From NCBI GenBank assembly GCA_016722565.1, contig JADKIU010000007.1, positions 303,679 to 367,678 on the forward strand: 64,000 bases of DNA, read 5' to 3'. Below, piece after piece: positions 7,506-59,557 of the stretch. The stretch comes from Bacteroidota bacterium. GTDB taxonomy: Bacteria > Bacteroidota > Bacteroidia > 2-12-FULL-35-15. Numbering within the stretch: position 1 is the first letter of the stretch; each line of letters opens with the position of its first letter. A model generated the notes under the pieces. That model was not told the origin of the DNA, did no database searches, and saw only the letters and a program-made list of their open reading frames with translations. The position numbers were made by a program, and so were the translations under genes.

Positions 7506-7873
7506 GACATTAGGGTTTTAGTTAATACTATTTTATATTGCTAATTTCCAGAGAATTAGACAAAATTCCATGGACAAAACAATACGCCATCTTACATTAT
7601 GAAAAAGCGCGAAATCATTGATTTTTTAGCAAAAAAAAGCCCTTTTATCACATACACGAAAAACAATTATATCTAAAATACTGTTAATACGCTGGCAATT
7701 GAATGAGACCATCTGCTTCTTTAAATCGAATTAAATAAATATATTTCAGATATAGAGCTTCGTAGGAGCGGCATAATTTGTTTTGATAGCCTTTATTTCA
7801 GACATGTATACAATTCCTAAATTTAGTTTTGTTTTCCATTCTTTATTGGTCTAATTTTATAGAAAAAAACACC

Positions 7874-18168: not shown

Positions 18169-19173
18169 TTAGTGTTTCACAACTTTTCTCACAACAGAAT
18201 TCCCTTTCGAATCATTTATTCGAACAAAATAAATTCCATTCAAAAAATCAGAAATATTTATTTCTGTTTGATTATTTTCTGAATACAACATTCTTCTTCC
18301 AAAAACATCCAATACTTCTATTGAATTAATTTCTAGTTCTGTTTTAATTTGAAATGATCCGGTTGTTGGATTTGGATAAACATTAATATTAATGGATTTA
18401 TAAACCTCATTCAAACCCATGTATAACTGATCGCAATAAATGTTGCTCATGAATGGCGGAGGAGGCCCTCCTGGTGTCACAACCGGAATTCCATTAATGG
18501 AAGCACAATATACATGAAAGCTGTTGACATATTCAAACTCTCCAAAATAACTAAGCGGATTATACAACTGGCCAACTCCTTCAACAAGTGAAGTTACCAC
18601 CATACTCCCTGGGCCACCCGGCTGCATCCAATATTGATCGGTAGTATCAACTAATGCATCTGGAGGCATAAGTCCGTGATAAATACCATTAAAACGAAAG
18701 CGTTTATGGTAAAGACCATCGTGAGGCATCAAAACACTATCAATGGAAGTCACCCATGCAGTATCTAATGTTGCCATCGGAGGCATTTCTGTAACTACCA
18801 ATTGATCATAAAAGCCAAAACCGGAAGTGGCATTCACAGTATCACCAACAGAAAGGTCAAAATCATAAAACACTTTTTCGGTATTGGTAGTAAAAGAATA
18901 GAAATATACTTTCTTATTCAACGTATCATTTCTGATCCCCCCCGTTTTTGAAACAGGCAATACCCCCGAATAAACTATTGCATAATGGTGAGCTCCGATC
19001 AATGTGTCTAAATTAATCTCAGTACGATGAGGAACCCAATAGGAGTCGCCCATCGACAAAGTATAATGGGAATAGCCATAAACAACCATTTTTGATGGAA
19101 ATGGAATATATGATTGCGCTCGAACTCCAATAAAATTAAGCAAGAGAAGGATAATCACTACATTTTTTTTCAT
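18169..19173 (-). CDS. T9SS cargo protein with a type-A CTD, function unknown
   Basis: Signal peptide MKKNVVIILLLLNFIGVRAQ. The C-terminus is VYPNPTTGSFQIKTEL...GIYFVRINDSKGNSVVRKVVK. Confidence 0.7.
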   Translation of the reverse strand: MKKNVVIILLLLNFIGVRAQSYIPFPSKMVVYGYSHYTLSMGDSYWVPHRTEINLDTLIGAHHYAIVYSGVLPVSKTGGIRNDTLNKKVYFYSFTTNTEKVFYDFDLSVGDTVNATSGFGFYDQLVVTEMPPMATLDTAWVTSIDSVLMPHDGLYHKRFRFNGIYHGLMPPDALVDTTDQYWMQPGGPGSMVVTSLVEGVGQLYNPLSYFGEFEYVNSFHVYCASINGIPVVTPGGPPPPFMSNIYCDQLYMGLNEVYKSININVYPNPTTGSFQIKTELEINSIEVLDVFGRRMLYSENNQTEINISDFLNGIYFVRINDSKGNSVVRKVVKH

Positions 19174-29200: not shown

Positions 29201-29427
29201 ATGGTGGTCCATTCAAAAAAATTGAATTCAGAATTTACAACAGCTGGGGTGAATTGATTTTTGAAAGCACCGATGCGACCGATTGTGGCGGACATACGTG
29301 TGTTGGTTGGGATGGTAAACGTAAAGGTATTGACCAAGCATTAGGCGTATATGTATACACCGTTATTGGAGTAACCGAAGACGATAAGGAACATAAAATT
29401 TCGGGTGACGTTACTTTACTTCGATAA
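26257..29427 (+). CDS. large PKD-repeat adhesin with a type-B T9SS CTD
   Basis: 1056 aa. N-terminus ATHVVGGSLTYEQLG. Several PKD units (WNWNFGD...THIYA.GG.YNVSL). The C-terminus (FSPNGDGENDIFF...WDGKRKG...GVYVYTV...GDVTLLR) matches TIGR04131. Confidence 0.8.
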   Translation: MKNKLLLLIIFVFLLPFVSNATHVVGGSLTYEQLGGSTYRVTLKLYRDCKPGSAAFPNPVTIEVRRNCGGTALPDITIPFPGASLVPPNIDTCAVNPGICLEEAIYTQVVTGLPPTPGGYDLYFQYCCRNSTLLNIVAPLSAGETWYAHIPDNGVVIANSSPKWVNPPPVFVCQGNNMFVDHSATDSDGDSLVYSLYTPFDDNAITYPGCVWSTPSVTWSSTYGANNPLDAATPFSLTVSPSGIINGVPPILGQFVAGVRCEEWRNGVKIGEILRDFQFNVVNCPPLAVASFSSGGACNGTTITFSNTTTPAANTYLWDFGDGSPTSTVTSPVHTYPGLGSYTAVLIINDGTPCADTMTQLVNISYVISDFSHNAPNCMGLPISFNDTSSVDPGSTITSWNWNFGDFGTSTLQDPTHIYAAGGTYNVSLITVTAAGCSDTITYPVTIQGNPIANAGGDTISCTNNSTITLGGTVLNAGGGIWSGSGIFNPTDSTLNATYTPTAAAILAGADTLELITYANAFCPADTDQVIISFYAGPTATAGPDLFVCKDTASVPVCATITVASGGIWATTGSGTFTSPTSLCTDYIPSTADTTAGTVMLYLATTGNGNCIASSDTVIVTFTGTPIALITSADSSCASNPINLNANVTTGTGIWSTTGSGSFSPNDTTINGVYLPSPTDDLAGNVTLIFTSTNNGGCRSNADTINVTLIPSPVAAFSSISACPQDTVSFTDGSTTVGTIVAWNWNFGDSGTSTLEDPTHIYATGGPFNVSLIVTSNNGCVDTLNQIVNVFEKPIANFNANGICLDDGTVYTDISTVGGGATIATWNWTYGDGSTNGTIQNPSHNFPTAGTYNTQLIVTSSQGCIDTVVQSVVVLPGPAAVFTSDDFTGNVNQQINFTDQSTNGAISWFWDFGDSSSDSTSTLQNPSHTYGAGGYYDVCLIVTDANGCTDTTCRTEVISMPPDVPTGFSPNGDGENDIFFVYGGPFKKIEFRIYNSWGELIFESTDATDCGGHTCVGWDGKRKGIDQALGVYVYTVIGVTEDDKEHKISGDVTLLR

Positions 29428-29451
29428 TACATTAGGTTGAGAAGAATTAAT

Positions 29452-30477
29452 ATGAAACATATTTTACATACTCCATTTTTAAAGTCGATGAATAAATCAC
29501 TACTCGCGATGGTGCTTTTACTTGTTGTAAAAGTAGCCTCAGCTCAAGATTTTCACTTGTCGCAATACGATGCTCCTCCTATGTTTCTCAATCCTGCAAT
29601 GACAGGAATGTTTGACGGGAAATATCGTATACACGGACATTACCGTACACAGTGGATGGCCGTTGCAACAAAACCATATACCACTGCCGGATTGTCTTTC
29701 GACATGCCTGTAAAAAAATTCGGTATCGGATTACAAGTTTTTAATTACCGTGCCGGTGCAGGAAATTACAATGCATTAAGTGCATTGCTTTCTGTTGGCT
29801 ACGATGTTGTTTTCGATAAAAAGAAAAACCATCACTTAGCATTAGGTGTTCAAGGTGGTATTGTAAACAAAGCAGTAGACCAAAGTAAATTGTCTTTCGG
29901 AAATCAATACACTACCGCAAATGATGGTGGCTTTGATGCTTCTATCGCAAGCGGTGAAACATTTGCCAACTCCAACTTTACGATTCACGATATCAACGCT
30001 GGTTTCTTGTATTATTATGCAAAAGAAAATTCACGCATTAATCCATTCATCGGTTTTTCTGCATTCCATTTAACACAGCCTACCGAATCATTCTTTGATA
30101 AAGAAAACAAATTACCATTGCGCTATTATGCACATGGTGGTGTGAAAGTTAACATCAATGAAAAAATTCAGTTGTTGCCAAAGTTCATTTATATGAAACA
30201 AATCAACGACCAGGAATTAACGGCTACTTTGTTGTTGCATTACTTCCTAAAAGATTCAGAAACGTATTTGATCTTCGGACCAACGTATCGTAATAAAGAT
30301 GCAGCCATTATTGAAGCAGGTTTAAAGAAAGGTAGTTATACCGCTCGTATCAGCTACGATATCAACACCTCTTCATTGCAACAGGTTTCGAACAAACGCG
30401 GAGGTTTTGAAATTTCTTTAACCTATGTTGCCCGCAGAAGCAAACCGAACCCTTTAGCAAACTGTCCAAGATTGTAG
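29452..30477 (+). CDS. PorP/SprF-family T9SS membrane protein
   Basis: The ATG lies 25 nt after the adhesin stop. It carries the signature AQDFHLSQYDAPPMFLNPAMTG and the beta-barrel-like composition of the TIGR03519 family. Confidence 0.8.
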   Translation: MKHILHTPFLKSMNKSLLAMVLLLVVKVASAQDFHLSQYDAPPMFLNPAMTGMFDGKYRIHGHYRTQWMAVATKPYTTAGLSFDMPVKKFGIGLQVFNYRAGAGNYNALSALLSVGYDVVFDKKKNHHLALGVQGGIVNKAVDQSKLSFGNQYTTANDGGFDASIASGETFANSNFTIHDINAGFLYYYAKENSRINPFIGFSAFHLTQPTESFFDKENKLPLRYYAHGGVKVNINEKIQLLPKFIYMKQINDQELTATLLLHYFLKDSETYLIFGPTYRNKDAAIIEAGLKKGSYTARISYDINTSSLQQVSNKRGGFEISLTYVARRSKPNPLANCPRL

Positions 30478-30479
30478 TT

Positions 30480-32543
30480 ATGAAAAACACGAAAAATATT
30501 ATTGCCTTATTATTCCTGTTTGTGACTGTATCTACTTTTGCTCAAAGCAAAAGGGAATGGTTGGAATATGCTGATGCAGCTTACAAAAACGGAGATTATA
30601 AAACTGCTGTTACTTTCTATTTAAAAGTAGTAGACAAAGGAACAGCTGTAGATTATACACGCCCATACGAAGCAAAACCGTATACACCTCCTAAAAAAAT
30701 TAAAAAGGACAGCGCAAGTGTTCCAAAAGACACAACCGTTATTACTACTTCTGACCCTACCGAACAATATGCGATTCATCAAATTGCAGACAGCTATCGT
30801 TTAAACCACGATTATGCAAATGCTGAAATTTGGTTTAAAAAATCAGTAGACAATAAACCAACGGATTATCCTTACGAACGTTTTTGGTATGGTGATGCAT
30901 TGATGAAAAATCAACGTTATCCGGGTGCTGCGTATCAATTTGAGCAAGTGATGACCGAAGCAGAAGGAAAAGATTCTGCCATGTTCAAACAATCGAAATT
31001 AAAAATTGCTGGCTGTTATTTGGCAACAGATACTGCTAATAACAAAACAGGTGTTATCGTTACCAAAATAAAAGATTCGTTATTCAATTCCGGAACAGCT
31101 AGTTTCGCTGTGAACTATTATGGCGATGCAAACACCGTTCAGTTTACCACTGCACGTGACGGCAACACCGTTCTTGATCCAAAAAAACAAGATCCGAAAT
31201 ATGTTTGCGACATTTATACTTTAAAGAAAACAAATAGTGGCTGGACTGAATTAGCAAAAGTATCCGGACCGGCAAACACAGAAATGCACGAAGGTGCAGG
31301 ATTCCTTACCTTAGACAGAAGTAATTATTTCTTCACCCGTTGGTCAACCACCAACAAAAACGAATGTGCAATCTATCTTTCAAAAAACATGAACGATCGA
31401 TGGTTGGGTGCTGAAAAATTAAACGACAACGTAAACCTTGCAGGCTATAAAACCATGCATCCTTCTCTTTCTCCAGATGGAAGTATTTTATATTTCTCTT
31501 CCAACCGCCCGGGTGGTTTTGGGAAAATGGATTTATGGTATGTGAACCTAGATGATGATAGTCGTCCTGTTGGTTCACCAATCAACATGGGTCCTTTGTT
31601 TAATACATCAGAAGATGAGGTGACACCTTTCTTTCATTATTATACTTCAACCTTGTATTTCAGTTCTAACGGTCATCCTGGATTTGGTGGATTGGATATC
31701 TTCAAATCATCTTATAACAGCGATTCATTGTGGTCGGCTCCCAAAAATATGGGCGCACCTTTCAACTCTAGCAAGGAAGATTCCTACTTTGTTTTAGAGC
31801 GTAGTCAGCGTGCAGGCTTCTTAACATCCGACCGCGAAGAATGTAAAGATTGTACAGGTGGTGCTTGTTTAAAAATTTATTCCATTGAAAAAGATCCATT
31901 GGTATTTGATTTAAAAGGAACGGTTTACAATGCTGAAACGAATCAGGTGATTGCAAACTCCATGATTACATTAAAAGATATCCGTGGAGATAAAGAGCCA
32001 TTCTTCTTGTTTACTGATGCAGATGGTAATTATTTTACTGCATTAGACGAAGGAATGGAACTGTATCTAAAAGCACAGAAAAATAAATTCTTTGGTGATG
32101 CAGGAAACGTAACCACTTTGGGATTAACAGAATCTGCGCATTTAGTAAAAGATTTCTTCTTATCTCCAATTCCTTCAGGCGATATTGTGATTCCAGGAAT
32201 TGAGTACGATTTGGATAAAGCAACCTTACGTCCGGCTTCTAAAAAGATTTTGGATGACTTAGCTGACTTCTTGAACTTGAACAACAACTTAACGGTTGAG
32301 ATTAATTCACATACAGATGAGCGTGGTGGAGATGCATATAATATGCGATTATCACAGGAGCGAGCAAAATCCTGTGTCGACTACTTAATCTCGAAAGGTA
32401 TTGCTAAAGAACGATTGTTACCTCAAGGGTATGGAGAAACCAAATTGTTAATCCCTAAAGCAACTACTGAGGAAGAACACCAAAAGAACAGAAGAACTGC
32501 TTTCCGACCAATCAAAGAAGGAGATATCAGAACTACAAAATAA
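30480..32543 (+). CDS. OmpA-family protein with TPR-like and Tol-type beta-propeller regions
   Basis: Its start overlaps the sprF stop (TAGTTATG). The C-terminal OmpA_C region reads NSHTDERGGDAYNMRLSQERAKSCVDYL. Confidence 0.8.
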   Translation: MKNTKNIIALLFLFVTVSTFAQSKREWLEYADAAYKNGDYKTAVTFYLKVVDKGTAVDYTRPYEAKPYTPPKKIKKDSASVPKDTTVITTSDPTEQYAIHQIADSYRLNHDYANAEIWFKKSVDNKPTDYPYERFWYGDALMKNQRYPGAAYQFEQVMTEAEGKDSAMFKQSKLKIAGCYLATDTANNKTGVIVTKIKDSLFNSGTASFAVNYYGDANTVQFTTARDGNTVLDPKKQDPKYVCDIYTLKKTNSGWTELAKVSGPANTEMHEGAGFLTLDRSNYFFTRWSTTNKNECAIYLSKNMNDRWLGAEKLNDNVNLAGYKTMHPSLSPDGSILYFSSNRPGGFGKMDLWYVNLDDDSRPVGSPINMGPLFNTSEDEVTPFFHYYTSTLYFSSNGHPGFGGLDIFKSSYNSDSLWSAPKNMGAPFNSSKEDSYFVLERSQRAGFLTSDREECKDCTGGACLKIYSIEKDPLVFDLKGTVYNAETNQVIANSMITLKDIRGDKEPFFLFTDADGNYFTALDEGMELYLKAQKNKFFGDAGNVTTLGLTESAHLVKDFFLSPIPSGDIVIPGIEYDLDKATLRPASKKILDDLADFLNLNNNLTVEINSHTDERGGDAYNMRLSQERAKSCVDYLISKGIAKERLLPQGYGETKLLIPKATTEEEHQKNRRTAFRPIKEGDIRTTK

Positions 32544-37850: not shown

Positions 37851-40279
37851 TTAGAACGTCAACACATATTGCAATGCTGTTGTTCTCGGTGATTCAATTT
37901 TCATTGGACGTAGCGAATAATCTACATTAAACACATTGCTGCACACCAAGGACAACTTATGTTTTTTACTCGCCTGATAACTTAGTCGAGCATCAAACAC
38001 ATGATACCCACTATGTTTTTCCCAATAATTAATTGCTTTTAAGTCATCCACAAATGTTAGTGCTTGTGTTAACTCTTCCAAATCTTCAAAAGCTTTATCG
38101 ATGTTTTGCATTTTACTATAGTAACGATAACTAAAGCCAACACCAAATTTAAAAATTCTAAATTCAATATCACCTTTGACCAAATGTTTGAAACGATACT
38201 TTAGAATATTATCCGTAGTATCCATGCTACTATTTTTATAGGTCAATGGTTTTCCAGCACCGCCAAAAGCGCTGTCAACAGCATAGACATTATCAGGAGT
38301 CAAGGTTATAGGTTCTACATACGTATAACCTAACAAAGCAGTCACACCAAATTTTTTGTTTTTTTCATCAGAAGAAAACACCATCGACATATCTACTCCA
38401 CGCACTTGCGAATTTCCTGTATTTACAAATTTAAAACCCAACAAAGCGATAGAAGGCTGCCATTGCCCGAATAAATACTCAATTGTATTTTCATAGCGTT
38501 GATAGAAACCGGCAACATCTAAATATCCCATGATACCACCCAATTTAAATCCTTGCTTTAAACCTACTTCAAAATTATTGCTGGTCTCCGGTTTTAAATC
38601 CGGATTCGGAAACACTCCAAACAAACCGGCTTTCGTAGAAATATAACGCTCAGTAATTGTCGGATATCTAAACCCTTGTCCGTAAGATGCACGCACATAC
38701 GTTGCCTTTAACACTTGCAAGCTTGCACCTGCCCTGTATATTGGAGCAACTACACTATTAAAATTATTCATTTTAAAATACTCATATCGGAATCCACCGG
38801 AAATGTTTAAAATGTTCCAGAACTTTTTATCTATTTGCGCATACCCACTGGCATTTACAATTTTATTGTCGGGTGATCCACTCGAAACATACAGCTGCGC
38901 ATGTGAATTAGAAACACTTCCTACCACTCCACCCGTGAATGTAAAATCTAAATTTTTAAAAATACGTTGTAATTGGTATTCACCATAATACAGTGTCCCG
39001 GAATTCGATTGGTTATTTGTTATCTGATTATCGGAATGAAAAACACGGGTCACCAAACTATGGCTAATGCCATTCCCTTTATTGAACTTAAGAAACGGAT
39101 CAAGGTTAAACAGTTTTTGATTCTGCAAAAACACTGCTCCCGGATATCCTTTGTAAAGGCCCAACGAATCGTCACTCCATGCCAATACCATATTCGTTTT
39201 ATTCAACATCCCGTTTCCGTTGATACCATAACTCAACCCTGGAAATTTTTTGGAACGGTAACGCAAATTAAAATTTAATCGTCCACGGACTTCCTGCATA
39301 TCTTTGTTCGAAAATGTAGGAATTTCGCCAACAACACTTTGAGCAAATGCAGGCACTGGTCCTTGTGGTGGTGGTGGACCAATGTATCCTTGATCGATAT
39401 TAAAATTACCACCAATTACAAAATCAAAATTCTTTTTGATGATACGGGAGTGTAAAAAATTCAAGTTGGTAAATCCGGGAATGGATTCGTTGTACCAATT
39501 GGTCGCAGGCTTTTTGGGATAACTATAATTCCCAACAGAATAGTTTACAATTGTTTTAGGTGTGCTTCTTGGATAAGCTGAACGAACATTGATAACACCA
39601 CTTAATGCCGAAGAACCATATAAAACAGAAGAAGCGCCTTTGATAATTTCTATTTGTTCAATGTTTTCTACAGGAATATAACTCCACTCAGGACGACCGG
39701 CATCACCGCTTAACAAAGGAATTCCATCTACAACAATCGCAACGCGACTCCTACACCAAATGTAAAACCACTTCCTCCTCTAATTTGTGGATCATTATCA
39801 ATGATGGTCAATCCGGGAACTTGTTCCAATGCTGTTTCAACGGAAGTTGTGTTCTTATTATTAATTAAACTAGGCTTGATTACCTCCATCGATACAGTCA
39901 TCTCTTCCAATTTCTGATCGAACTTACCGGATGAAACAACAATCGTTTCTAAAAACTTTGTAACCGTTAATAAGGCAATGTTTTTTTCTGTAATTGCATT
40001 GGTTTGAATGTGAACAGAAAACGTATCATTTACCGAACCAATAAATACACAAAAAAGTTGATGGTATCCCGTATCCAACACCATCGAATAGTTTCCGTCA
40101 ATATCTGAAACGGTTCCTTTGGTCAAATTATTAACCAATCGAATGGTTGCACCGGGCAGGTATTCTTTCGAATTTGCATCGGAAATTTTCCCTTTTAAAA
40201 TTCCTGTTTCCTGAGCAGAAACAGAACCTAAAAAAAGAATTAGAGAGAATAATAAAGAAAGAAATTTATGATTTTGCAT
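37851..40279 (-). pseudogene. TonB-dependent receptor interrupted by a 1-nt deletion in the plug domain near 39741-39760. This is either a real pseudogene or a sequencing error.
   Basis: The N-terminal ORF (real start MQNHKF at 40279) ends ...QIRGGSGFTFGVGVALRLL*. The next frame reads SRVAIVVDGIPLLSGDAG..., which restores the canonical plug sequence GSRV..VDG.P.LSGDAG. The downstream ORF 37851..39716 starts at a TTG. Confidence 0.7.
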
Positions 40280-40337
40280 TTTAAAAAATAAAAAACCTTG
40301 ACAAAAAATGTCAAGGTTTTTTATAGAATAGCTTTTA

Positions 40338-41312
40338 TTACTTGATAAACAATTTACCTGATTTTTGAATTTCAGATCCACTCAATTGATAGAGATACAA
40401 TCCTGAATTTAATTGGGAAACATTAATGGTGCTCAATTGATTGTTTGAAAGCACATGTGTAGAAACCAATTTTCCGGTAATATCATAAATAGATAATGTG
40501 GATGGAGCTTTTATTCCTTTGATAAAATCAACATAAATTGTTTTATCGTATGCATACACATTCGCATTGCTTTCGTTGAAAGAATTTTCAGTAATGCTGG
40601 AAGAATTATATACAACTGCTAAATCATCCAACCACAATTTACTACCGGATGTAGATGTATTTTGGTCGTTAGAAGAAGTTGTATTAATCATAATATATGC
40701 AGGGTTACTGGTAGACACGTAATTGAATGCAACAGCGAAGCGTGTCCATGTTGTAACATTCGCAGCAGGAGTTAAAAACAATGCATCCGCAATTTTATTT
40801 ACAGACGAATCCGGATGATACGATGTAGCTGTTTCTGGGTCGTAGTAATTTCCAACATGTAAAATGGCTCTTACTTTTCCAATTTCAGCAGCACCACCTT
40901 GTGTGTATTTATACCATCCAACAATACTATCCGGACGACCAACAAACGACATACGTCTGATGTCAGAAGCATCTGTATTTTTCATGGTACCAAGATATCC
41001 ATCCGATTTGGTAGTGGTCGGAGCATTTACAATTCCGGTTGTAACTGAACCATTTACCACTGCAAAAACAAATGTTTTGGTTTCCATACGAACGGAATAT
41101 AATCCGCCATGGAATGTTGACGCATCTCTGTAACAGGTTTGAGGACCACTGGTTGCCCAATCGGTTCCAGTTCTATTTGAATTAAAGAAGGTAGGTTCTT
41201 CTGTTGCAGAACCAACATTTTCCCATAATTCAAAATCTCCGTTTTGAATGGTTGTTTGTGCAAACATTCCGGTTGCAAATGTGATTGATAGGAGTGTAAG
41301 TATTTTCTTCAT
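40338..41312 (-). CDS. T9SS cargo protein with a type-A CTD, function unknown
   Basis: Signal peptide MKKILTLLSITFATGMFAQ. The C-terminus reads LSIYDITGKLV...GLYLYQLSGSEIQKSGKLFIK. Confidence 0.7.
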   Translation of the reverse strand: MKKILTLLSITFATGMFAQTTIQNGDFELWENVGSATEEPTFFNSNRTGTDWATSGPQTCYRDASTFHGGLYSVRMETKTFVFAVVNGSVTTGIVNAPTTTKSDGYLGTMKNTDASDIRRMSFVGRPDSIVGWYKYTQGGAAEIGKVRAILHVGNYYDPETATSYHPDSSVNKIADALFLTPAANVTTWTRFAVAFNYVSTSNPAYIMINTTSSNDQNTSTSGSKLWLDDLAVVYNSSSITENSFNESNANVYAYDKTIYVDFIKGIKAPSTLSIYDITGKLVSTHVLSNNQLSTINVSQLNSGLYLYQLSGSEIQKSGKLFIK

Positions 41313-43306: not shown

Positions 43307-43412
43307 TTGATTGAGTAATTCTGAAGGAATTCCTGCAGGACAAATTTAAGATAAATGCAGAAACTAATTCAGAATATTTGTAAATTTGATATGGATAAAA
43401 AACGGAAACAAA

Positions 43413-44735
43413 ATGAAAAAAAACTACCTCGCATTGATAGCTGTTTGCTATCTTAGCGTATTATCGTTTACTACAAAAGCGCAATGCACCGCTAACTATA
43501 CAGCCAGTAATGTTGCAAACGTGTTTTCATTTACAGATGCCTCTACCACGAGTTCAGGAACGATTGTTACATGGTTGTGGAACTTTGGAGACCTTTCTGC
43601 TCCAAGCACATTGCAAAACCCGACACATACCTATGCTGTATGTGGCGTGTATAACGTTTCATTAACCATCGCTACCAGTTTCTTTTGTACAAATACATAT
43701 TCTACAACCATCACTGTTAATAGTGGAATGACCGGCTCGTTCACATCTACAGTCGACACCACCACCGGTCTGGCTAATTTTATTGCCAGTCCGCTTGGCC
43801 TAGACATTGATTATTCTTGGGATTTCGGAGACGGAAACACAGGAACCGGTGCAACTGCAATCAATACCTATGCGACCTCCGGAACGTATTATGTTTGTTT
43901 AACAATTGCAGATACAGGAGGCATTTGCTCCAGCACGTTCTGTGATAGCGTCATTATATACATCGCAACTCCTGATTGCAGCTCTACTTTTACATATACC
44001 GATAATGGTACCGGAAACTTAACCTTTCAAGCAAACCCTGTTGTGGTTACAAATACGTATAGCTGGGATTATGGCGATGGAACAACCGGAACGCTCCCAC
44101 TTTCACTGCATACTTACGCAACTGCAGGAACGTATTATGTATGTTTAACAACCACTGACCCACTGACTTCCTGCACCAGTACTTTTTGTGATAGTGTTAT
44201 CGCTGCAGGAACAGGTGCTTGCGCTGTTTCATACACGTATTTGGATGTAAACGGAATTGTTGGATTTACTGCATCACCACTTTCGATAACCAATACGTAT
44301 ACCTGGAATTTTGGTGATGGGAATACTGGAACTGGAGCAATAACAACAAATACATATGCTACTTCCGGAACCTACTATGCATGTGTAACGATGATTGACG
44401 CATTCAATGCATGTACGGATACCTATTGTGATTCTGTTACAGTGAATATTACAGGAATTGGAATTTTTGAAAATGGAAGCAACAATTTTAATTTGGTTGT
44501 ATTTCCAAATCCGGCAGAAGAGCAAGTAACTATTTCATACGAATTGACTCAAGCATCAAAATTGAATATTGAACTGTTTGACATAATAGGAAATAAAATT
44601 TCTTCCAGTTCTTTTTCTCAAACTTTAGGAAAACATCAAACGGTTGTTGATACTTACCTGCTAAGTCAAGGTGCATATTTAATAAAACTCAGCTCCGAAA
44701 CTGGAAATGCAAGCAAATTAATCATCAAAAATTAA
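43413..44735 (+). CDS. PKD-repeat T9SS cargo protein with a type-A CTD
   Basis: Four PKD-like units with W.FGDG and paired Cys residues (TFCDSV), plus a C-terminal VFPNPAEEQVTISYEL...GAYLIKLSSETGNASKLIIKN. The ATG at 43413 is in frame with track ORF 43386. Confidence 0.75.
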   Translation: MKKNYLALIAVCYLSVLSFTTKAQCTANYTASNVANVFSFTDASTTSSGTIVTWLWNFGDLSAPSTLQNPTHTYAVCGVYNVSLTIATSFFCTNTYSTTITVNSGMTGSFTSTVDTTTGLANFIASPLGLDIDYSWDFGDGNTGTGATAINTYATSGTYYVCLTIADTGGICSSTFCDSVIIYIATPDCSSTFTYTDNGTGNLTFQANPVVVTNTYSWDYGDGTTGTLPLSLHTYATAGTYYVCLTTTDPLTSCTSTFCDSVIAAGTGACAVSYTYLDVNGIVGFTASPLSITNTYTWNFGDGNTGTGAITTNTYATSGTYYACVTMIDAFNACTDTYCDSVTVNITGIGIFENGSNNFNLVVFPNPAEEQVTISYELTQASKLNIELFDIIGNKISSSSFSQTLGKHQTVVDTYLLSQGAYLIKLSSETGNASKLIIKN

Positions 44736-44790: not shown

Positions 44791-44918
44791 TGATATAAAC
44801 AATTAATTTAACATTTTGAACACGTAAGTTTTTACAATTTTGATTTTATTCCAGGCGAAATGTATTGCACATTTGTATCATCAAATTAAAAAACGAAAAA
44901 CAATTAAATCTTAATACC

Positions 44919-46076
44919 ATGAAAACAATCTCTACCATTCAACAAAACATGCTCACCAAAATTTCCAAAGCAGTTCTTTTGGGAGCATTTATTTTCATTG
45001 GCTTTACATCTAAAGCACAATGTACTGCTTCATTCATGCCATTTGATTCGGCTGGATACGGCTATTTTGTAAACACATCTGTAGGATCAGGACTAACCAG
45101 CACCTGGGATTTTGGAGATGGATCAACAGGAACAAGCGTTGGGGATATTACACATTTATATACCACGCCAGGGACTTATTATGTTTGTCTTACAGTAAAC
45201 AATTTTTTAACAACCTGCACTGCTACGTTCTGTGATTCAATTACCATTTCGTCTACATCAGGAAGCTGCAATGCGTATTTTGTTTCAAACGACTCATCCA
45301 CATTCACTCAGTTTTATGATTATTCATCAGGAACTGGAACCTATACCTATTTCTGGGATTTCGGTGACGGTAGCAACTCTTCAACCGTAGGCAACGAAAC
45401 CCACGTTTATGCTAGTCCGGGTACCTACACCGTTTGTTTAACCATAACAGATACGAGTTCTTCATGTACAGACACCTATTGCAGTTCAGTTACTGTTCCG
45501 GGAGTTGCAACATGTTCCGCAAGCTTTATAATTGTACAAGATTCTTCCAACCTTTACAATTACTTTGTATACAATACATCTTCTGTATTTGGACCAGCAC
45601 TTACATACCTTTGGGATTTTGGTGATGGAACAACATCCACCGCAGCATACCCTTCACATACCTATGCATCTACATCACCTGTTGTATTGTGTTTAACAAT
45701 TGCTGACGGATTAGGTTGCACGGATACATTCTGCGATTCAATTACTCCGGGAATGATGATGTCAAGTACATTTACGATTAATGTATTGCCATTGGGTGTA
45801 GCAGAAGAACTTTCAACAATTAATTCATTGGATAATTATCCAAACCCATTCAGCAACTCCACAACCATCAATTACAGTATCCGTAAAGATGCCAATGTAT
45901 CCATCTCCATTGTAGATCTTTTGGGAAATACAGTTGCAGAATTAGAAAATGGAAATCAAGTAAGCGGAGAACATACAACAACTTGGGATGCATCAGCAGT
46001 TGCAGAAGGCATGTATTTACTTCAGTTAAAAGTTGACAACAACATTAAAACCAAAAAAATCATCGTTAGTAAATAA
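44919..46076 (+). CDS. PKD-repeat T9SS cargo protein with a type-A CTD, a tandem paralogue of the gene at 43413
   Basis: It has the same repeat architecture (WDFGDG...YYVCLT...TFCDS) and a C-terminal YPNPFSNSTTINYSI...GMYLLQLKVDNNIKTKKIIVSK. The ATG at 44919 is in frame with track ORF 44865. Confidence 0.75.
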   Translation: MKTISTIQQNMLTKISKAVLLGAFIFIGFTSKAQCTASFMPFDSAGYGYFVNTSVGSGLTSTWDFGDGSTGTSVGDITHLYTTPGTYYVCLTVNNFLTTCTATFCDSITISSTSGSCNAYFVSNDSSTFTQFYDYSSGTGTYTYFWDFGDGSNSSTVGNETHVYASPGTYTVCLTITDTSSSCTDTYCSSVTVPGVATCSASFIIVQDSSNLYNYFVYNTSSVFGPALTYLWDFGDGTTSTAAYPSHTYASTSPVVLCLTIADGLGCTDTFCDSITPGMMMSSTFTINVLPLGVAEELSTINSLDNYPNPFSNSTTINYSIRKDANVSISIVDLLGNTVAELENGNQVSGEHTTTWDASAVAEGMYLLQLKVDNNIKTKKIIVSK

Positions 46077-51187: not shown

Positions 51188-51922
51188 ATGTTTTATTATA
51201 AAAAGTGGGCAATCGTCATTCCAATGGCAAATGAAGAACAGGATTTCAAGCCTTTTATTGAAATGCTCAACTTTGTTATTGATGAACTAAATCCCGGAAG
51301 TGTTTATTTTATCATTGATAAAGCATCTACAGATAAAACGCTCGAACTCTCTCAAGCCCTATCTGCAAAAGATTCAAGATATGTTACTGTTTGGTCGCCC
51401 GAAAACAAAAATGTGGTGGATGCTTATGTAAAAGGATTGCGTGTAGCTTACGAAGCTGGTCATGAAATCATCATTGAAATGGATGCCGGTCTTTCACACG
51501 ACCCTCGTGCCATTCCAATGTTTTTACGTGTACTCAACGAAGGAAACGAATGCGCATTCGGCAGTCGATTTATTAACGGAGGCTCCATGGGCGATTCACC
51601 GTTCAAACGCAGAATGCTTTCTAAAACCGGAACCATCTTGGCAAACTTGTTATTGGGCACGAAATTACGTGATATGACATCCGGCTACCAAGGTTTTCAT
51701 CGGGATGTGGTAGGAAAAATCATTAATCACAAATTTAAATCAAAGGCACATTTCTATCAAACAGAATTACGTTATTTGTTAAGAAAACGAAGAACATTTG
51801 AGGTGCCCATTCACTACCAAGCTCCTTCCCCACGTGTTTCTAAAAATGCCATAAAAAATGCTTACCAAACTTTATTTTATTATTTCATTCAACGACTGCG
51901 TGGAAACAAACCAACATTGTAA
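51188..51922 (+). CDS. GT2-family polyprenol-phosphate glycosyltransferase (DPM1 / GtrB / ArnC-like)
   Basis: Contains IVIPMANEE, EMDAGLSHDP, GSRFINGG and DMTSGYQGF, in the spacing seen in polyprenyl-phosphate sugar transferases. Confidence 0.7.
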   Translation: MFYYKKWAIVIPMANEEQDFKPFIEMLNFVIDELNPGSVYFIIDKASTDKTLELSQALSAKDSRYVTVWSPENKNVVDAYVKGLRVAYEAGHEIIIEMDAGLSHDPRAIPMFLRVLNEGNECAFGSRFINGGSMGDSPFKRRMLSKTGTILANLLLGTKLRDMTSGYQGFHRDVVGKIINHKFKSKAHFYQTELRYLLRKRRTFEVPIHYQAPSPRVSKNAIKNAYQTLFYYFIQRLRGNKPTL

Positions 51923-51932
51923 TTAATTAAAT

Positions 51933-52940
51933 ATGTCTAAGTCACTAATCATCACTTCCATTGCAAATGATCAACATCCGATCTTAAAACAGTTTGCAAA
52001 AGAATGTAAAGAAAACCATTTGGATTACATTGTTATAGGCGATACAAAATCTCCTGCAGATTTTAAATTGGAAGGCTGCGACTATTGGAGTGTTGAACGT
52101 CAACTCACGCTCCCTTTTGAATTAGCTAAAATCACTCCCACTCGTCACTATTCCCGAAAGAATTTAGGCTACCTACTAGCGATTAAAAATGGATCTACCG
52201 AACTGGTTGAAACCGATGATGACAATATTCCAAGACCAGAATTTTGGGAAGAAAAAAAACGTGAAGTAAAAAGTCATGTGTTTGAAAACACAGGATGGGT
52301 GAATGTTTACCATTATTTCACAAAGAATATGATTTGGCCGCGCGGGTTTCCGTTGGAAGAATTACAAAACAAACAAATTGAGCTTTCTACTTTAAAAAAC
52401 ACTGCCGTCAATTGCCCTATTCAACAAGGCTTAGCAGATGAGAATCCGGATGTGGACGCTGTTTATAGATTAACATATCCGTTACCATTAAATTTTGAAA
52501 TCAAAAACAAACTGGCGCTCGGAAAAAATGCATGGAGCCCGTTTAATAGTCAAAATACACACTGGTTCAAAGAAGCATTTCCACTGATGTATCTTCCTTC
52601 CTTTTGCAGTTTCAGAATGACGGACATCTGGAGAAGTTATGTAGCGCAGCGCATTGCGTGGGAATGCGGCTGGAGCGTATTGTATCACGAACCTACTGTT
52701 TGGCAGGAACGCAATGCTCACAATCTGATGAAAGATTTTGAAGACGAAATTCCCGGGTACTCAAACAATTTAAACATCTGCAAAGAATTACAGGGATTAT
52801 CGCTAAAACCCGGACAAGAAAACATCTACGATAATTTAATTACGTGTTACCAAAAATTAATCGATATCAATGTTGTTGGGAAAGAAGAAATGGGCCTTCT
52901 AAAAGCCTGGATAAGCGACATTAGTAAGTTGAAAAATTAA
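51933..52940 (+). CDS. hypothetical protein, possibly associated with the adjacent glycosyltransferases
   Basis: 335 aa, soluble, no confident family. It sits between the GT2 gene and the convergent GT-C gene. Confidence 0.55.
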   Translation: MSKSLIITSIANDQHPILKQFAKECKENHLDYIVIGDTKSPADFKLEGCDYWSVERQLTLPFELAKITPTRHYSRKNLGYLLAIKNGSTELVETDDDNIPRPEFWEEKKREVKSHVFENTGWVNVYHYFTKNMIWPRGFPLEELQNKQIELSTLKNTAVNCPIQQGLADENPDVDAVYRLTYPLPLNFEIKNKLALGKNAWSPFNSQNTHWFKEAFPLMYLPSFCSFRMTDIWRSYVAQRIAWECGWSVLYHEPTVWQERNAHNLMKDFEDEIPGYSNNLNICKELQGLSLKPGQENIYDNLITCYQKLIDINVVGKEEMGLLKAWISDISKLKN

Positions 52941-52943
52941 CTA

Positions 52944-54629
52944 CTAATATTTTATTTCGTATAACTCACACTTCTCCTTTGTACCAATTGTTTTTACCAA
53001 ACGGATCTTCTGTGGATATTTTTGATATACAGGTCCAATCATACGATGGATTGTATTGATAACTCTTCCGTTATTTTTCTTTGGGTTCATCCTTAAATTT
53101 GATAGAATCACATATTGCACTTCCAGTTTTTTCCAATCCATCAAAACCGTATCTGCATCCATGGATGTTGTAATAAATTGACCAAGAAATTTTTTTCCAT
53201 CCCCATATAAAAAAGACATAGCTGGCTTACGAGACAAAACAACTGCACTGTCAGGCAAACTATCTGCACAGTACTTGCTCATCTTTAAGAAATTTTCCCA
53301 ATCGGGTGTATAGCCGTAATAAATATCTCCGGCCAAATTTTTTCTGAAAGAAGTAATTTTACTTTTATCTATTGCTGATATTTTAATAGTATACAGCAAC
53401 ATTCCGCCAGCAAAAAGTACAAATACAACTTGCATCATCGAGTACTTTTTTATCAACTCATAAATTCCATAAAAGAACAAAAGGAATATTAAATGCACTA
53501 CGATTACTATCAATCTGTCTTGCATGTTATTTGACTGAACACCTAGAAATATACCCCCACACAGCACTATAAAATAAATACTGGAGAAAAATATAAACTT
53601 GTTCTTTTTAAAACTTAAGAACGTGAAAATTCCAATCAGCACCGCAGTGATATATGCAAACTGAGGAACTATACTTGCTAATTCATACGCATCTTTTCTT
53701 AAATTCATAATACGATAAATGTGCAACGACATATACGTATTAAAATTATTAAAGAAACGATCAGCCATTCCTGAAAAATCTTCATGCCCACTAATTGGTT
53801 TGTACAACTCTTTTCGAAGCATCATCTCCAACTGATTGGTTTCATTTGCACCAAACATTGCAGTAGTAACAAATTGATAAATCATTCGGATAACAAAAAA
53901 TGCTACCACTGCATATATTACTTGTTTGTAATTCTTTTTCAACAGAAAATAAGCTGCAACTCCAACAATTGCAACAACAGCAACACTCTTTGAAATCGTT
54001 AACAAAACAAACAATAATCCGAAGATGATCCATTTAAGATAATTCTGTTTGAGATCTTCTAAAAGACTTTGGTTGTCCTTAATTCCGTCAATAATTTTAA
54101 AAACAATATAAAAGCAAACCGACTGAACAAAAAGGAAAAATGTTTCTGTAAATGTTTGACTGGCATAATATTGAATAAAATGATTGAATGAGATGAATGA
54201 AATGAGCGCAAAAAGAACAGTATAAGGAATTCATTTTACAAATGCTTTATACGTAAACCAAACAAATCCAAAGTGGCAGACCACTGAAGACATTTTTAAT
54301 GCAATTACATTGAGTCCGAATAGTTTTACGACTATGGATAAAAAAATAGGATAACCCGGTCCTTGAAAATAAGGAAATTTGTTTTCGTGCAACAAGGACC
54401 ACGCTCGCTCTATATAGGAAGAATCATCACCACCATCCGATACTTTTGCGTCAAAAAGTATAAAGGAAAAAATAGTGGAAAAGAACAGAAGAGAATAAAA
54501 AACTTTTTTATCGTTTTTCTCAAACCAATTATTTAATCGATCAAAAAGTTCCAACTTGTTTCTACTTTGCGCAGCAGTCCCTTTTGATGTACTAATTGTT
54601 TTTGATTGGTGCTTTTCTTTTTTTGACAT
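52944..54629 (-). pseudogene. GT-C-fold membrane glycosyltransferase (GT39 / ArnT / PMT-like) carrying an in-frame TGA at 54231-54233
   Basis: Track ORFs 54231..54629 and 52944..54014 are in the same frame. The stretch between them translates as a continuous hydrophobic segment (IPYTVLFALISFISFNHFIQYY...) that runs into LFVLLTISKS. The N-terminal loop has the D-rich motif SDGGDDSSYIERAWSLL. Overall the protein has about 11 or 12 transmembrane helices. Confidence 0.6.
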
Positions 54630-55805: not shown

Positions 55806-58772
55806 ATGGCCTCATTGATGAAAATAAAACAACTTCTCCTTTATTTTTTCATCTTGCTTACTTTCACCGGTGAAGCACAATCCACGTTTTTTCGCAACTA
55901 CTCCGTTGAAGATGGATTACCGTTCATCAATGTATCCGCTATTTTTCAAGATAGAAAAGGAAATTTATGGAGTAGCGGATATGGCGGATTAAGCAAATTT
56001 GACGGAATTTCCTTTACCAACTTTGCCCCTAAAGACGGATTACTCAATCACTTTGTAACCACCATCTGCGAAGACAATCAAGGAAATCTTTGGGTTGGAA
56101 GTATCAGCGGCATAAATAAATTTGATGGCAAAACATTTACCGGGTTTACAACTAAAAATGGGCTCATCCACAACTCAATTACCTCGTCCTTAAAAGATAA
56201 AGCAGGAAATATCTGGTTTGGAACAGAAAAAGGATTAAGCAAATTAGCAGATGGCTCATTTATTAATTTTTCAAAAAAAGATGGACTCGTTGGTAATTTT
56301 ATTAAATGTTTGTTCCAAGACAAAGAAGGGAAAATTTGGATAGGCACAAATGATGGCATCAGTATTTTTGATGGAAAAACGTTTACCTCCATTACCACCG
56401 CCAATGGTTTGTTATCAAACGAAATTTCAGCAATCACCCAAGACAAACAAAATAATTTTTGGGTTGGTACTTCCAATGGAATTTGCAAAATCAGCAACAA
56501 TACATTTACCACTTATACAATTGAACAAGGACTAACAGACAATAACGTAACTTCACTTTTAGTCGATAATAAAAATACACTTTGGATTGGAACCGGAAAA
56601 GGATTAGTAAAATATACGAATAATCAATTCACAAAATACTCCATTAAAAGAGATCAAAACAGTAATCTGGTAAGCTGCTTATTCGAAGATTTTGAAAACA
56701 ACCTTTGGATAGGGACTTATTCCGGCTTGTTTAAATACCGCGGTAATCCTTTTATTTCATACGGAATTCATGACGGACTCACCAACAATTTTATTTTTGG
56801 TATCACGCGTGATTCAAAAAACAATCTCTGGGTAGGATCGCAAGGTGGCGGACTTTTTAAATTTGACAATGGTGAATTTTTACAATACAATCAGGAAAAC
56901 GGACTGGATGCCAACGGAGTAAATATGATTTATGAAATCAGTCCAGGAATCCTTTGGCTTGCTACTGATGAAGGATTGAGGATATACAATGGAAAAACGT
57001 TTACAAAAGGTAATGATACTTCCTCTGTTTGGTCAAACGTAACCAATGTAATTTACAAAGACTCCAAAAACAACCTCTGGATAGGTGCTACCGGAAAAAT
57101 ATTTAAATACGATGGTACCAACTTCACCTTTTACCCTCTAAAAGGTTTAACTGAAAAATGTAATGTTTGGACATTTGTTGAAGATAAAAAGGGAACACTT
57201 TGGGCAGGAAGTTATTTAGGTGGAATTTTTAAGTTGGACGGCAATACATTTGTTGAATGCACACAACAGCTTGGATTAAAAAATGACTCTTATCTCGCTT
57301 CGTTAATTGACAAAGAAGGGAATTTATATTTCGGGGCGCTCGATGGTCTGTGGATGTTCAATCCTAATGACATGAGTCAGCCAGCAATGAATTTTAGCGA
57401 AAAAGATGGAATGAGTTCCGATTTGGTGTATTCACTCACATTTGGAAAATCAGAAAATGAAATTTGGATAGGAACCAATCAAGGTATTAATAAGCTTGAT
57501 ATTGCCCGTTATAAAGCGACCAAAGAAAAAAACATTATTCCTTTTGGAAAACAAGAAGGATTCTCCGGAGTAGAATGTAATGGTAATGGAACATTTGTAG
57601 ATCGGGATGGAGCCATTTGGTTTGGAACAGTTAATGGTGTAATCAAGTACGATCCGAATGAATATATCCCTAATCCCTTCGAATCAAAAATTAGCATTAC
57701 AAAATATCGTTTATTTTATAAAGACACATTGTTTACCAACAATATGCATTTGCATTATGATGATAACAGCATCACGTTTAACTTTTCCGGAATCTGCTTA
57801 ACCAATCCTTCAAAAGTAAAATACTCGCATATTCTTGAAGGATTTGAAACCAACTGGTCGCCACCCTCAAAAGATCGTTTTACTAACTACTCCAATCTAC
57901 CTCCGGGAACCTATACCTTTAAAGTGATTTCCTCCAACAACGAAGGGGTTTGGAATACTGTCCCCGCTACATTTACATTTACAATTGATCGCCCTTTTTG
58001 GAAAACCTGGATATTTATCATTGCATCCACCTCCTTTTTCATCATCGCGCTTATTCTTTCCATTCGTTTACGCATCAAACGGATTAAATTGCGTGAAAAA
58101 AGAAAAACCGAACTCAATAAAAAAATTGCAAACATCGAATCACAAGCACTGCGTGCACAAATGAATCCACATTTTATTTTTAATACACTCAGCTCCATTC
58201 AGCATTATATTTCCAATAACGATACGGATGCTGCATTAAAATACTTATCGAAATTTGCGAAATTGATGCGTAGAATCATGGACAATTCCAAACAACAAAT
58301 GATCTCTGTTGCTGAAGAAATCAACGCACTGGAATTATACCTCGAATTGGAAACCATGCGTTTTGATAAAAAATTCATACACACAATTACGGTTGATAAA
58401 GAAATTGACTTGACCTACGACCGCATCCCTTCCATGCTCATTCAGCCTTATGTTGAAAATGCGATCATTCACGGATTACTACCAATGCAAGGGAATGGTA
58501 AAATTTTAATTTCCTTGGAAAAACAAAACGACACGATTTTATGTACCATCGAAGACAATGGAATCGGTAGAGAAAAATCGAAAGAATTTAAAAAGAACAG
58601 AGTGCAACAACACAAATCCATGGGAATGAGTATTACTCAGGAGCGGTTGGACATTTTAAATTCCAGCTTGAATAGTAATATCAATGCCGAAATTGTTGAT
58701 TTGTTTGAAAACGGGAAAGCGGCAGGTACAAAAGTGAGATTAATCATCCCGTTGGAAACCAATGAATATTGA
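55806..58772 (+). CDS. sensor histidine kinase with periplasmic two-component-regulator propeller repeats and a LytS/YehU-type His_kinase domain
   Basis: Repeated NLW(I/V)GT..G motifs, a transmembrane segment, QMNPHFIFNTLSSIQHYI (PF06580), and an HATPase_c C-terminus. It starts 2 nt after the thiL stop. Confidence 0.85.
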   Translation: MASLMKIKQLLLYFFILLTFTGEAQSTFFRNYSVEDGLPFINVSAIFQDRKGNLWSSGYGGLSKFDGISFTNFAPKDGLLNHFVTTICEDNQGNLWVGSISGINKFDGKTFTGFTTKNGLIHNSITSSLKDKAGNIWFGTEKGLSKLADGSFINFSKKDGLVGNFIKCLFQDKEGKIWIGTNDGISIFDGKTFTSITTANGLLSNEISAITQDKQNNFWVGTSNGICKISNNTFTTYTIEQGLTDNNVTSLLVDNKNTLWIGTGKGLVKYTNNQFTKYSIKRDQNSNLVSCLFEDFENNLWIGTYSGLFKYRGNPFISYGIHDGLTNNFIFGITRDSKNNLWVGSQGGGLFKFDNGEFLQYNQENGLDANGVNMIYEISPGILWLATDEGLRIYNGKTFTKGNDTSSVWSNVTNVIYKDSKNNLWIGATGKIFKYDGTNFTFYPLKGLTEKCNVWTFVEDKKGTLWAGSYLGGIFKLDGNTFVECTQQLGLKNDSYLASLIDKEGNLYFGALDGLWMFNPNDMSQPAMNFSEKDGMSSDLVYSLTFGKSENEIWIGTNQGINKLDIARYKATKEKNIIPFGKQEGFSGVECNGNGTFVDRDGAIWFGTVNGVIKYDPNEYIPNPFESKISITKYRLFYKDTLFTNNMHLHYDDNSITFNFSGICLTNPSKVKYSHILEGFETNWSPPSKDRFTNYSNLPPGTYTFKVISSNNEGVWNTVPATFTFTIDRPFWKTWIFIIASTSFFIIALILSIRLRIKRIKLREKRKTELNKKIANIESQALRAQMNPHFIFNTLSSIQHYISNNDTDAALKYLSKFAKLMRRIMDNSKQQMISVAEEINALELYLELETMRFDKKFIHTITVDKEIDLTYDRIPSMLIQPYVENAIIHGLLPMQGNGKILISLEKQNDTILCTIEDNGIGREKSKEFKKNRVQQHKSMGMSITQERLDILNSSLNSNINAEIVDLFENGKAAGTKVRLIIPLETNEY

Positions 58773-58807
58773 TTGGAAATTTAAAAAGTATTATATTCGT
58801 AGTACAT

Positions 58808-59557
58808 ATGATAAAAGCAATAATAGTAGATGATGAATTAGGCGCACGCGAATCATTATCAAAGATGTTAGAAAAAAACTGCAAACAAATTGAAGTGGTT
58901 GCAAAGGTGGATTCGATGCTAAGTGCATTTGAAGCAATTACTAACAAGGAACCTGATTTGGTATTTTTAGACATCGAAATGCCGAACGGGAATGCGTTTG
59001 ATTTACTCGAAAAATTTAAAAAAATCAACTTTAACATCATCTTTACCACAGCTTATGATCATTATGCTATCAAAGCGATTAAATTTAGCGCCATTGATTA
59101 CATTCTAAAACCAATTGACCCCGAAGAGCTTGTAAATGCCGTAAGACGATTTGAAGGCCAACACGGGCAAAAAGAGTCGCTCGATAAACAATTCAAAACA
59201 CTCCTTTCCAACGTAAAGCCTGAAAATAAACTCAAAAAAGTAGGTATTCCTGACGGAGACGGACTTATTTTCATTAACCTTTCAGATATCATTCGCTGTG
59301 ATTCAGACGGCAATTACACCTTTTTTATTCTTACCAATGGCAAAAAAATCATCGCCTCCCGCACCCTAGGGGAATACGAACAAATGTTTGCCGATGACAA
59401 TTTCTTCCGCATCCACCGCTCCCACTTAATCAATCTCGAGCACGTAAAAAAGTACATAAAAGGAGAAGGCGGATACGTTGTAATGTCCGACAATTCACAG
59501 GTTGAGGTCTCCAGACGTAACAAAACCGATTTCCTCGAAAAACTATCCCATTTATAG
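58808..59557 (+). CDS. LytTR-family response regulator
   Basis: The receiver domain has IIVDDE...DLVFLDIEMP. The C-terminal LytTR domain ends ...FFRIHRSHLINLEHV. The ATG at 58808 is in frame with track ORF 58769. Confidence 0.85.
   Translation: MIKAIIVDDELGARESLSKMLEKNCKQIEVVAKVDSMLSAFEAITNKEPDLVFLDIEMPNGNAFDLLEKFKKINFNIIFTTAYDHYAIKAIKFSAIDYILKPIDPEELVNAVRRFEGQHGQKESLDKQFKTLLSNVKPENKLKKVGIPDGDGLIFINLSDIIRCDSDGNYTFFILTNGKKIIASRTLGEYEQMFADDNFFRIHRSHLINLEHVKKYIKGEGGYVVMSDNSQVEVSRRNKTDFLEKLSHL

Follow-up and report, generated by a model that had tools for sequence, protein, structure and literature searches.

An in-frame TGA interrupts a predicted GT-C fold membrane glycosyltransferase gene next to a GT2-GT75/STELLO-type operon in an uncultured Bacteroidota genome

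The window analysed here is a 64,000-nucleotide stretch of contig JADKIU010000007.1 (positions 303,679 to 367,678 of the forward strand) from the Bacteroidota bacterium assembly GCA_016722565.1, and it contains a gene, which we call MEMB, for a predicted GT-C fold membrane glycosyltransferase. The 562-codon frame of MEMB has a single interruption, one TGA at 54233-54231. Either this TGA makes MEMB an ordinary null allele or it is a base-calling error; it is not a recoding site. Of the readings considered, the most likely is that it is a real and very recent loss-of-function mutation, and it is toward this reading that we lean. MEMB faces two genes on the opposite strand, which encode a GT2 enzyme and a GT75/STELLO-type protein (Table 1). 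An earlier note on this DNA, made by reading the sequence, had located the three open reading frames (ORFs) and the TGA, and its coordinates were all exact.

To define the nature of the lesion, the joined MEMB frame was compared with its homologues. A database search with this frame retrieved over 200 full-length proteins, each of approximately 560 amino acids (aa), 60-95% identical and from uncultured Bacteroidota, which span the stop uninterrupted. Because these proteins align on both sides of the stop, the MEMB frame is real coding sequence and not a chance ORF. The column of the stop is occupied by Arg in 27 of 27 aligned orthologues. Similarly, R133 is invariant in 61 close orthologues, and the residue at this position is Arg or Lys in 108 of 141 distant MEMB representatives. 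Codon 133 was read in eight related contigs; it is CGA in L001, L002, L003, L083, L084, L085 and L005, and CGC in L004. Since the close relatives encode Arg with CGA, the lesion in MEMB is a single C-to-T transition (CGA to TGA). In the predicted model of the protein, R133 lies in a short basic loop between transmembrane helices 2 and 3 (TM2 and TM3). These results are consistent with the earlier note, which had preferred a nonsense or substitution event to recoding and had proposed an alignment to orthologues as a check; the alignment placed Arg at the TGA.

The same note had raised the possibility that orthologues are routinely split into two genes at this position. This was not the case, as a single ORF was found in essentially all of the 77 species-level loci; the gene is intact in about 75 of them. 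The exceptions were L072, a long-read metagenome-assembled genome (MAG) with a frameshift, and L015 and L081, whose apparent stop sits at the contig end and was for that reason rejected as a lesion. The shorter MEMB product of L084 (559 aa) was likewise rejected as an in-frame deletion, the difference being an N-run scaffold gap inside the gene (alignment columns 1170-1185).

If the TGA is real, the only MEMB product expected is the 132-aa N-terminal fragment, for which NCBI has an entry of its own, named "hypothetical protein" (MBL0330949.1, IPP64_16440). Translation could restart at the earliest from a TTG at 54014, with the loss of three helices. The TGA allele is null, because the 132-aa product keeps the loop with the Asp-Asp pair and lacks E162, R291, N295, R372 and the C-terminal domain.

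We next consider whether the full-length enzyme might still be made because the TGA is decoded. Selenocysteine insertion, a reassigned code, natural suppression and programmed read-through would each have this effect. The frame is open on both sides of the TGA without decay, and UGA followed by A is generally held not to be the strongest termination context; both observations would be compatible with decoding. However, the orthologues carry Arg at this position and never Cys or Sec, and the residue is directly encoded in every relative. We know of no bacterial reassignment of TGA to Arg. As the earlier note had expected, no SECIS-like structure was found downstream of the TGA. The 96 nt around and downstream of it are no more prone to fold than shuffled sequence (z = -0.03), a scan against Rfam gave nothing relevant, and a tRNA scan of the window found no tRNA gene. 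In addition, TGA ends the gene for a histidine kinase (a Y_Y_Y/Reg_prop sensor; 55806-58772, plus strand), which has a 4-nt overlap (ATGA) with the next ORF (58769-59557, plus strand), corresponding to the LytTR response regulator of the syntenic locus L093. Among the window ORFs of at least 200 aa, 26 stop at TAA, 12 at TAG and 2 at TGA, and no other long ORF of the window is interrupted by TGA. With these points against it, decoding of the TGA is very improbable.

Evidence that bears on a real mutation came from close relatives of the window. Two contigs, L002 (2891-4575) and L003 (167-1851), share a 1-bp deletion at MEMB codon 83 (GAAAATAAG to GAAAAT-AG), which splits the gene into ORFs of 100 and 449 aa. 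These contigs derive from two independent metagenome assemblies (ENA ERZ27257534 and JGI 3300006056; the same as L086, L087 and L082), and only 3-5 nt separate them otherwise from L083 and L085, in which the gene is intact. A further lesion was seen in L094 (137-925, protein P0392), where GCATTTTTTG is changed to GCTTTTTTTTG, a run of eight T, at about codon 244, so that the frame shifts by +1 and ends after 262 aa. L094 is a single short contig of 965 nt from Logan SRR25779721, and an assembly artefact is possible in this case. MEMB is broken independently in three closely related lineages, the window included. The window gene shows no other decay: its ratio of non-synonymous to synonymous substitution rates (dN/dS) against relatives is approximately 0.065, the same as in long-range comparisons, with 24 synonymous and 9 non-synonymous changes on the window branch and 26 and 5, respectively, on the sister branch. 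Because there is no other decay, and because two other independent frameshifts occur in related populations, it appears that MEMB is dispensable or counter-selected in this species group. Phase variation was also considered for MEMB and rejected, since neither the TGA nor the L002 deletion coincides with a repeat tract and only the L094 lesion lies in a T-run.

Alternatively, the TGA could be an uncorrected base error in the MAG consensus, for example one left over from Nanopore sequencing or from polishing, or a variant of a minority strain that polishing fixed. The gene of the organism would then be intact with CGA. We regard this as quite possible, though not as what we expect, and several observations weigh in its favor and against a real mutation. 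The TGA allele is unique to this record: its exact sequence had 0 matches in JGI metagenome contigs, an N-wildcard scan recovered CGA carriers only, and every other contig of the species group, at approximately 96% nucleotide identity, has CGA. In a protein-cluster look-up, the source MAG was the only one on record with the 132-aa product, and in the contig index the exact 132-aa fragment, the STELLO-type protein, ThiL and IspG had no match. The contig in the source MAG is 679,285 bp long, a length suggestive of assembly from long reads. Furthermore, the rest of MEMB is under undiminished purifying selection, and the absence of further decay would be equally expected from a base error. The window also holds a second broken gene, for a TonB-dependent receptor, with a single-base lesion 14 kb away from the TGA, and this suits residual consensus errors as well as real pseudogenes. 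One half of the receptor gene (39728-40381) encodes a CarboxypepD_reg domain, and the other (37851-39716) the beta-barrel together with the last part of the Plug domain. An apparent 1-nt deletion splits the gene at approximately 39746-39751, in ...GGTGTAGGA^GTCGCG..., and the downstream frame reads SRVAIVVDGIPLLSGD.

Against a consensus error, residual long-read errors are mostly homopolymer indels and not clean transitions, whereas CGA to TGA is a classic spontaneous nonsense mutation. Moreover, only 2 of approximately 55 window genes are broken, so the consensus is generally good, and that MEMB does suffer real inactivating lesions is seen in close relatives assembled from short reads. In favor of an error, on the other hand, systematic errors beside methylated motifs are known for R9 chemistry and could be considered if the assembly is based on it. 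Records with IPxx locus tags are, we presume, the activated-sludge Nanopore MAGs of PMC8012365, for which R9.4.1 reads were assembled and a single Illumina Racon round was applied. The changed base lies immediately 5' of GAATTC (minus-strand reading, window 54227-54232) and the receptor frameshift lies within GAGTC, which may be a coincidence. Whichever of the two holds, there is nothing unusual in the stop codon as such. The site deserves a flag, either for a pseudogene or for a base in need of re-checking, and nothing about recoding can be learned from it.

The MEMB protein was then examined for its family membership. Neither the window protein nor its 95%-identical intact orthologue P0001 had a Pfam or NCBIfam hit, even at E<=10, and a profile search of the PDB with the MEMB family found no GT-C chain by sequence, ArnT and PMT included. 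In contrast to these sequence searches, an AlphaFold model of P0001 made with a 61-sequence alignment (predicted local distance difference test 81, predicted TM-score 0.83) gave 35 top Foldseek hits in the PDB that were all GT-C enzymes, with STT3/AglB first (4e-8), followed by ALG12, ArnT, PglB, PimE, Pmt4, AftB and EmbB. The C-terminal domain also had a fold match to STT3/AglB. According to the model, MEMB is a GT-C fold integral-membrane glycosyltransferase with approximately 12-13 transmembrane helices and a C-terminal alpha/beta domain that is predicted to be periplasmic. It superposes on solved enzymes, and it has acidic residues after TM1 and conserved basic residues. None of the 141 representatives (27-46% identity) departs from D68, D69, K112, E162, R291, N295 or R372, a pattern as expected of a GT-C active site, with the loop position taken from the model.

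The earlier note had called MEMB GT39/ArnT/PMT-like and had named a failure of the GT-C assignment in a hidden Markov model (HMM) search as refuting its system-level inference. The assignment stands on structure prediction and fold search and fails on HMM search, and the "GT39/ArnT/PMT-like" label describes a fold rather than a demonstrated family membership. For GT39/PMT and PMT_2 (ArnT-like, GT83), no match to PF02366, PF13231 or the NCBIfam ArnT/PMT models was above threshold. Sub-threshold PMT_2 matches occur in 15 of the 61 MEMB members (best 5e-5) and probably explain why NCBI labels one relative "glycosyltransferase family 39 protein". As for GT66, there is no WWDYG in the alignment, and the Pfam STT3 model hit 1 of 61 members, at E 0.32. 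The family is a small one, with 1016 representatives at E<=1e-3 among 1.84 billion; it is restricted to Bacteroidota and has no curated sequence model. Thus, a conserved GT-C family is missed by current HMM libraries, and its assignment is at the fold level only. The fold and the neighboring DPM1-like GT2 gene suggest that MEMB would use a polyprenyl-phosphate- or diphosphate-linked donor.

The GT2 protein scores 54 bits against Pfam PF00535. In the PDB it comes closest to a Dol-P-Man synthase (5mlz, 1.4e-19) and to ArnC (1e-7), in agreement with the DPM1/GtrB/ArnC-like character proposed for it earlier. The top NCBIfam models were PgfS, Dol-P-hexose transferase, ArnC, AglJ and PpgS, all far below their equivalog cutoffs. 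The metal motif is D100-A-G102 (51485-51493), as compared to DAD in PfDPMS and ArnC, so that an intact DXD is not present. The surrounding EMDAGLSHDP is kept in 33 of 33 orthologues, and E98 could compensate as part of an ExD motif. The gene is under very strong purifying selection (dN/dS approximately 0.004). No C-terminal transmembrane anchor, of the kind that GtrB, ArnC and archaeal DPMS carry, was found in the protein, which ends at residue 244 without a hydrophobic helix. Human DPM1 and mycobacterial PpgS are likewise anchorless.

The middle gene, at 51933, had been described as a gene of unknown function. NCBI records it as a DUF288 domain-containing protein (MBL0330947.1), and our searches identify it as GT75/STELLO-type: it matches PF03385 at 45.7 bits, above the STELLO threshold, and it aligns over residues 63-307 with the nucleoside diphosphate (NDP)-pyranose mutase MtdL (PDB 7xpr/7yua) at an E value of 2e-20. 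The roles of the MtdL residues, the essential set and the catalytic, autoglycosylated Arg have been reported (PMC9937993). Of this set, the middle gene keeps D95-D96-D97-N98, R137 (in WPRGFP), D173, S206, Q207, R228, D231, R260 and H263. The Mn ligand His287 of MtdL is replaced by Gln258, and Asp87 of MtdL by Tyr73. The motifs are kept in about 30 orthologues, and TVWQERN, the stretch with Gln258, is found in all of them. The inactivity of AtRGP5 was linked to the joint loss of His287 and Arg257 (PMC9937993); the equivalent of Arg257 is retained here. By sequence, the middle gene is a homologue of NDP-sugar pyranose-furanose mutases, and its product may act as a mutase or as a transferase. We therefore re-name this "hypothetical" gene a GT75/STELLO-type mutase homologue.

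Table 1. Positions of the features discussed, counted from the first nucleotide of the window.
Feature	Position	Strand	Description
GT2 ORF	51188-51922	+	244 aa; DPM1/ArnC-type catalytic domain, without membrane anchor
GT75/STELLO-type (DUF288) ORF	51933-52940	+	335 aa; starts 10 bp past the GT2 gene
MEMB, predicted GT-C fold membrane glycosyltransferase gene, disrupted	54629-52944	-	562 codons (561 sense codons and the stop)
MEMB in-frame TGA	54233-54231	-	Codon 133, replaces an Arg codon (...YKAFVK*IPYTVLFALI...)
MEMB N-terminal fragment	54231..54629	-	132 codons and the stop; TM1, first external loop with the invariant DD motif, TM2
MEMB D68-D69 (Asp-Asp pair)	54423..54428	-	Directly after TM1, motif FDAKVSDGGDDSSYIERAW; candidate catalytic acidic motif in the first external loop
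MEMB remainder past the TGA	52944..54230	-	428 codons; approximately 10 transmembrane helices and the C-terminal alpha/beta domain; E162, R291, N295, R372
TonB-dependent receptor gene, split	37851-40381	-	Junction at about 39728-39779
T9SS-sorted genes	6291-7505, 7829-8959, 8996-11731, 12435-14099, 18169-19173, 23612-26119, 26257-29427, 40338-41312, 43386-44735, 44865-46076		

The three genes had been read as a single glycosylation unit, and the genomic context does not bear this out. MEMB is convergent to the GT2 operon and anchored to thiL, the downstream gene (MBL0330950.1), and in relatives the GT2 operon has an AftB-like GT-C gene of its own. The arrangement GT2-(double SDR)-STELLO, convergent with MEMB and with thiL coming next, is found again in many loci of the order, among them one on a 4.5-Mb contig. 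In its fullest form in relatives, the operon consists of the AftB-like GT-C gene (X598), the GT2 gene, a gene for a double SDR epimerase/dehydratase and the GT75-type gene. X598 encodes a 598-aa multi-pass membrane protein on the same strand as GT2 and immediately upstream of it (L016:8471-10267, minus strand; also L005, L008, L010, L017, L018, L032 and L040). Without a hit in Pfam, it matches NF041481, the NCBIfam model of the terminal beta-(1->2)-arabinofuranosyltransferase AftB, at 1.3e-15 and also the LA_3751/LA_3752 putative glycosyltransferase family. The double SDR (676-681 aa) joins an HpnA-like sugar epimerase half to a GalE/LegB-like half, and its gene lies between the GT2 and GT75/STELLO genes (L012:8719-10749, minus strand; L006-L008, L010, L027, L031, L032, L042, L044; L093:7963-10008). 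Neither X598 nor the double SDR is present in the window. A sequence kinship between MEMB and X598 was rejected (hhalign probability 2.9%), the two being unrelated at the sequence level, and a 406-aa gene upstream of GT2 in L093, considered as a remnant of X598, proved to encode a cargo protein of the type IX secretion system (T9SS). A scan for sigma-70 promoters and terminators gave nothing above background.

From these observations we infer a scheme of donor synthesis and transfer. A nucleotide sugar would be epimerised or dehydrated by an SDR in the relatives that have the double SDR, and the GT75-type enzyme would convert the nucleotide sugar, possibly from the pyranose to the furanose form. 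The GT2 enzyme would then load the sugar onto undecaprenyl phosphate at the cytoplasmic side. After flipping of the lipid-linked sugar, one or more GT-C enzymes, MEMB and, where present, X598, would pass it, at the periplasmic face, to a glycan or a protein of the envelope. It is conceivable, if unlikely, that MEMB represents a sequence-orphan Bacteroidota GT-C family (about 1000 clusters at 50% identity) with an oligosaccharyltransferase-like architecture, operating in an undescribed route from nucleotide sugar to furanose, onto undecaprenyl phosphate and an envelope glycan. Its partners in this route would be an anchorless DPM1-like GT2 and a GT75-type mutase, joined in relatives by the double SDR and the AftB-like GT-C enzyme. 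Several findings count against the scheme of donor synthesis and transfer. We infer the functional tie between MEMB and the GT2 operon from their adjacency only; in many relatives, MEMB lies beside thiL without the GT2 operon, and distant MEMB homologues adjoin parC, an aminoacyl-tRNA synthetase gene or a gene for a methyltransferase-GT2 fusion. In addition, both cytoplasmic enzymes, the GT2 and the GT75-type, lack one canonical metal ligand.

A serious competitor, short of probable, is that the adjacency is incidental and MEMB is not a partner of the GT2/GT75 operon, with X598 as the transferase of that operon and MEMB as an independent housekeeping envelope enzyme that might use an undecaprenyl-diphosphate-linked donor in an oligosaccharyltransferase-like manner. 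This question is separate from the nature of the TGA. The convergent orientation, the pairing with thiL, which persists at loci lacking GT2 and STELLO, and the distant homologues beside parC or an aminoacyl-tRNA synthetase gene all speak for it, as do the same-strand position of X598 upstream of GT2 in relatives, its match to the AftB model, and the likeness of MEMB to STT3/AglB in both the best Foldseek hits and the C-terminal domain. However, approximately 12 loci, including the window and the 4.5-Mb contig, lack X598 and have MEMB as the only GT-C gene nearby, and what a polyprenyl-phosphate-sugar synthase makes must have a GT-C enzyme to consume it. In Bacteroidales, moreover, the homologues of MEMB adjoin a divergent GT2-containing gene, and it is generally known that the use of one lipid-linked donor by several GT-C enzymes is the norm in mycobacteria.

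The earlier note had also suggested T9SS cargo as a target of glycosylation, and this idea found no support beyond the many T9SS cargo genes of the window. The products of ten window genes carry a C-terminal sorting domain of the T9SS, of the Por_Secre_tail or CHU_C type, and several also have PKD repeats (Table 1). After one of these genes, which encodes a CHU_C cargo protein (26257-29427), come a gene for PorP/SprF (29437-30477) and one for a TPR-PD40-OmpA protein (30480-32543).

If MEMB does act in surface modification as proposed, the three independent lesions in one wastewater/freshwater species group would reflect ongoing selection on that modification, with phages or grazers as possible agents. 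Because intact and broken MEMB alleles occur naturally within this species group, a ready comparison is at hand for finding the glycan product. The mosaic operon of AftB-like GT-C, GT2, double SDR and GT75 genes in uncultured Bacteroidota could provide a nucleotide-sugar route to lipid-linked furanose donors, as an alternative to systems based on phosphoribosyl pyrophosphate (PRPP).

The proposed scheme shares the logic of the ArnC/ArnT and Gtr systems, with a furanose step added. In contrast to ArnC/ArnT, which modifies lipid A with 4-amino-4-deoxy-L-arabinose, and to GtrA/GtrB/GtrC, which glucosylates O-antigen in the periplasm, MEMB lacks sequence membership in ArnT/GT83 or PMT/GT39, and the GT2 enzyme is anchorless and has DAG in place of DAD. 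Furthermore, no gene for a GtrA- or ArnE/F-type flippase adjoins the locus, a GT75-type gene is part of the operon, and the GT-C gene lies on the opposite strand. Compared with STT3/AglB/PglB (GT66), MEMB has a conserved YYGYTPDWENF instead of WWDYG, and the likeness is one of fold only, without a sequence hit in the PDB. In the three-component pentofuranose systems on which GT136 was founded (Kelly et al. 2024), the lipid donor is made from PRPP via a UbiA-type phosphoribosyltransferase (PMC11127046). Unlike in these systems and in the mycobacterial GT-C enzymes that depend on polyprenyl-phosphate-arabinofuranose (AftA/AftB/AftD/Emb), the lipid donor here would be made from a nucleotide sugar by the GT2 enzyme after a GT75-type step, and no UbiA-type or MATE gene was seen. 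Similar to the GT75 mutases (MtdL, Hyg20 and plant RGP/UAM) and to plant STELLO, the middle gene keeps the DDDN motif, the catalytic Arg and the sugar-binding set, whereas it differs from MtdL in having Gln258 for His287 and Tyr73 for Asp87.

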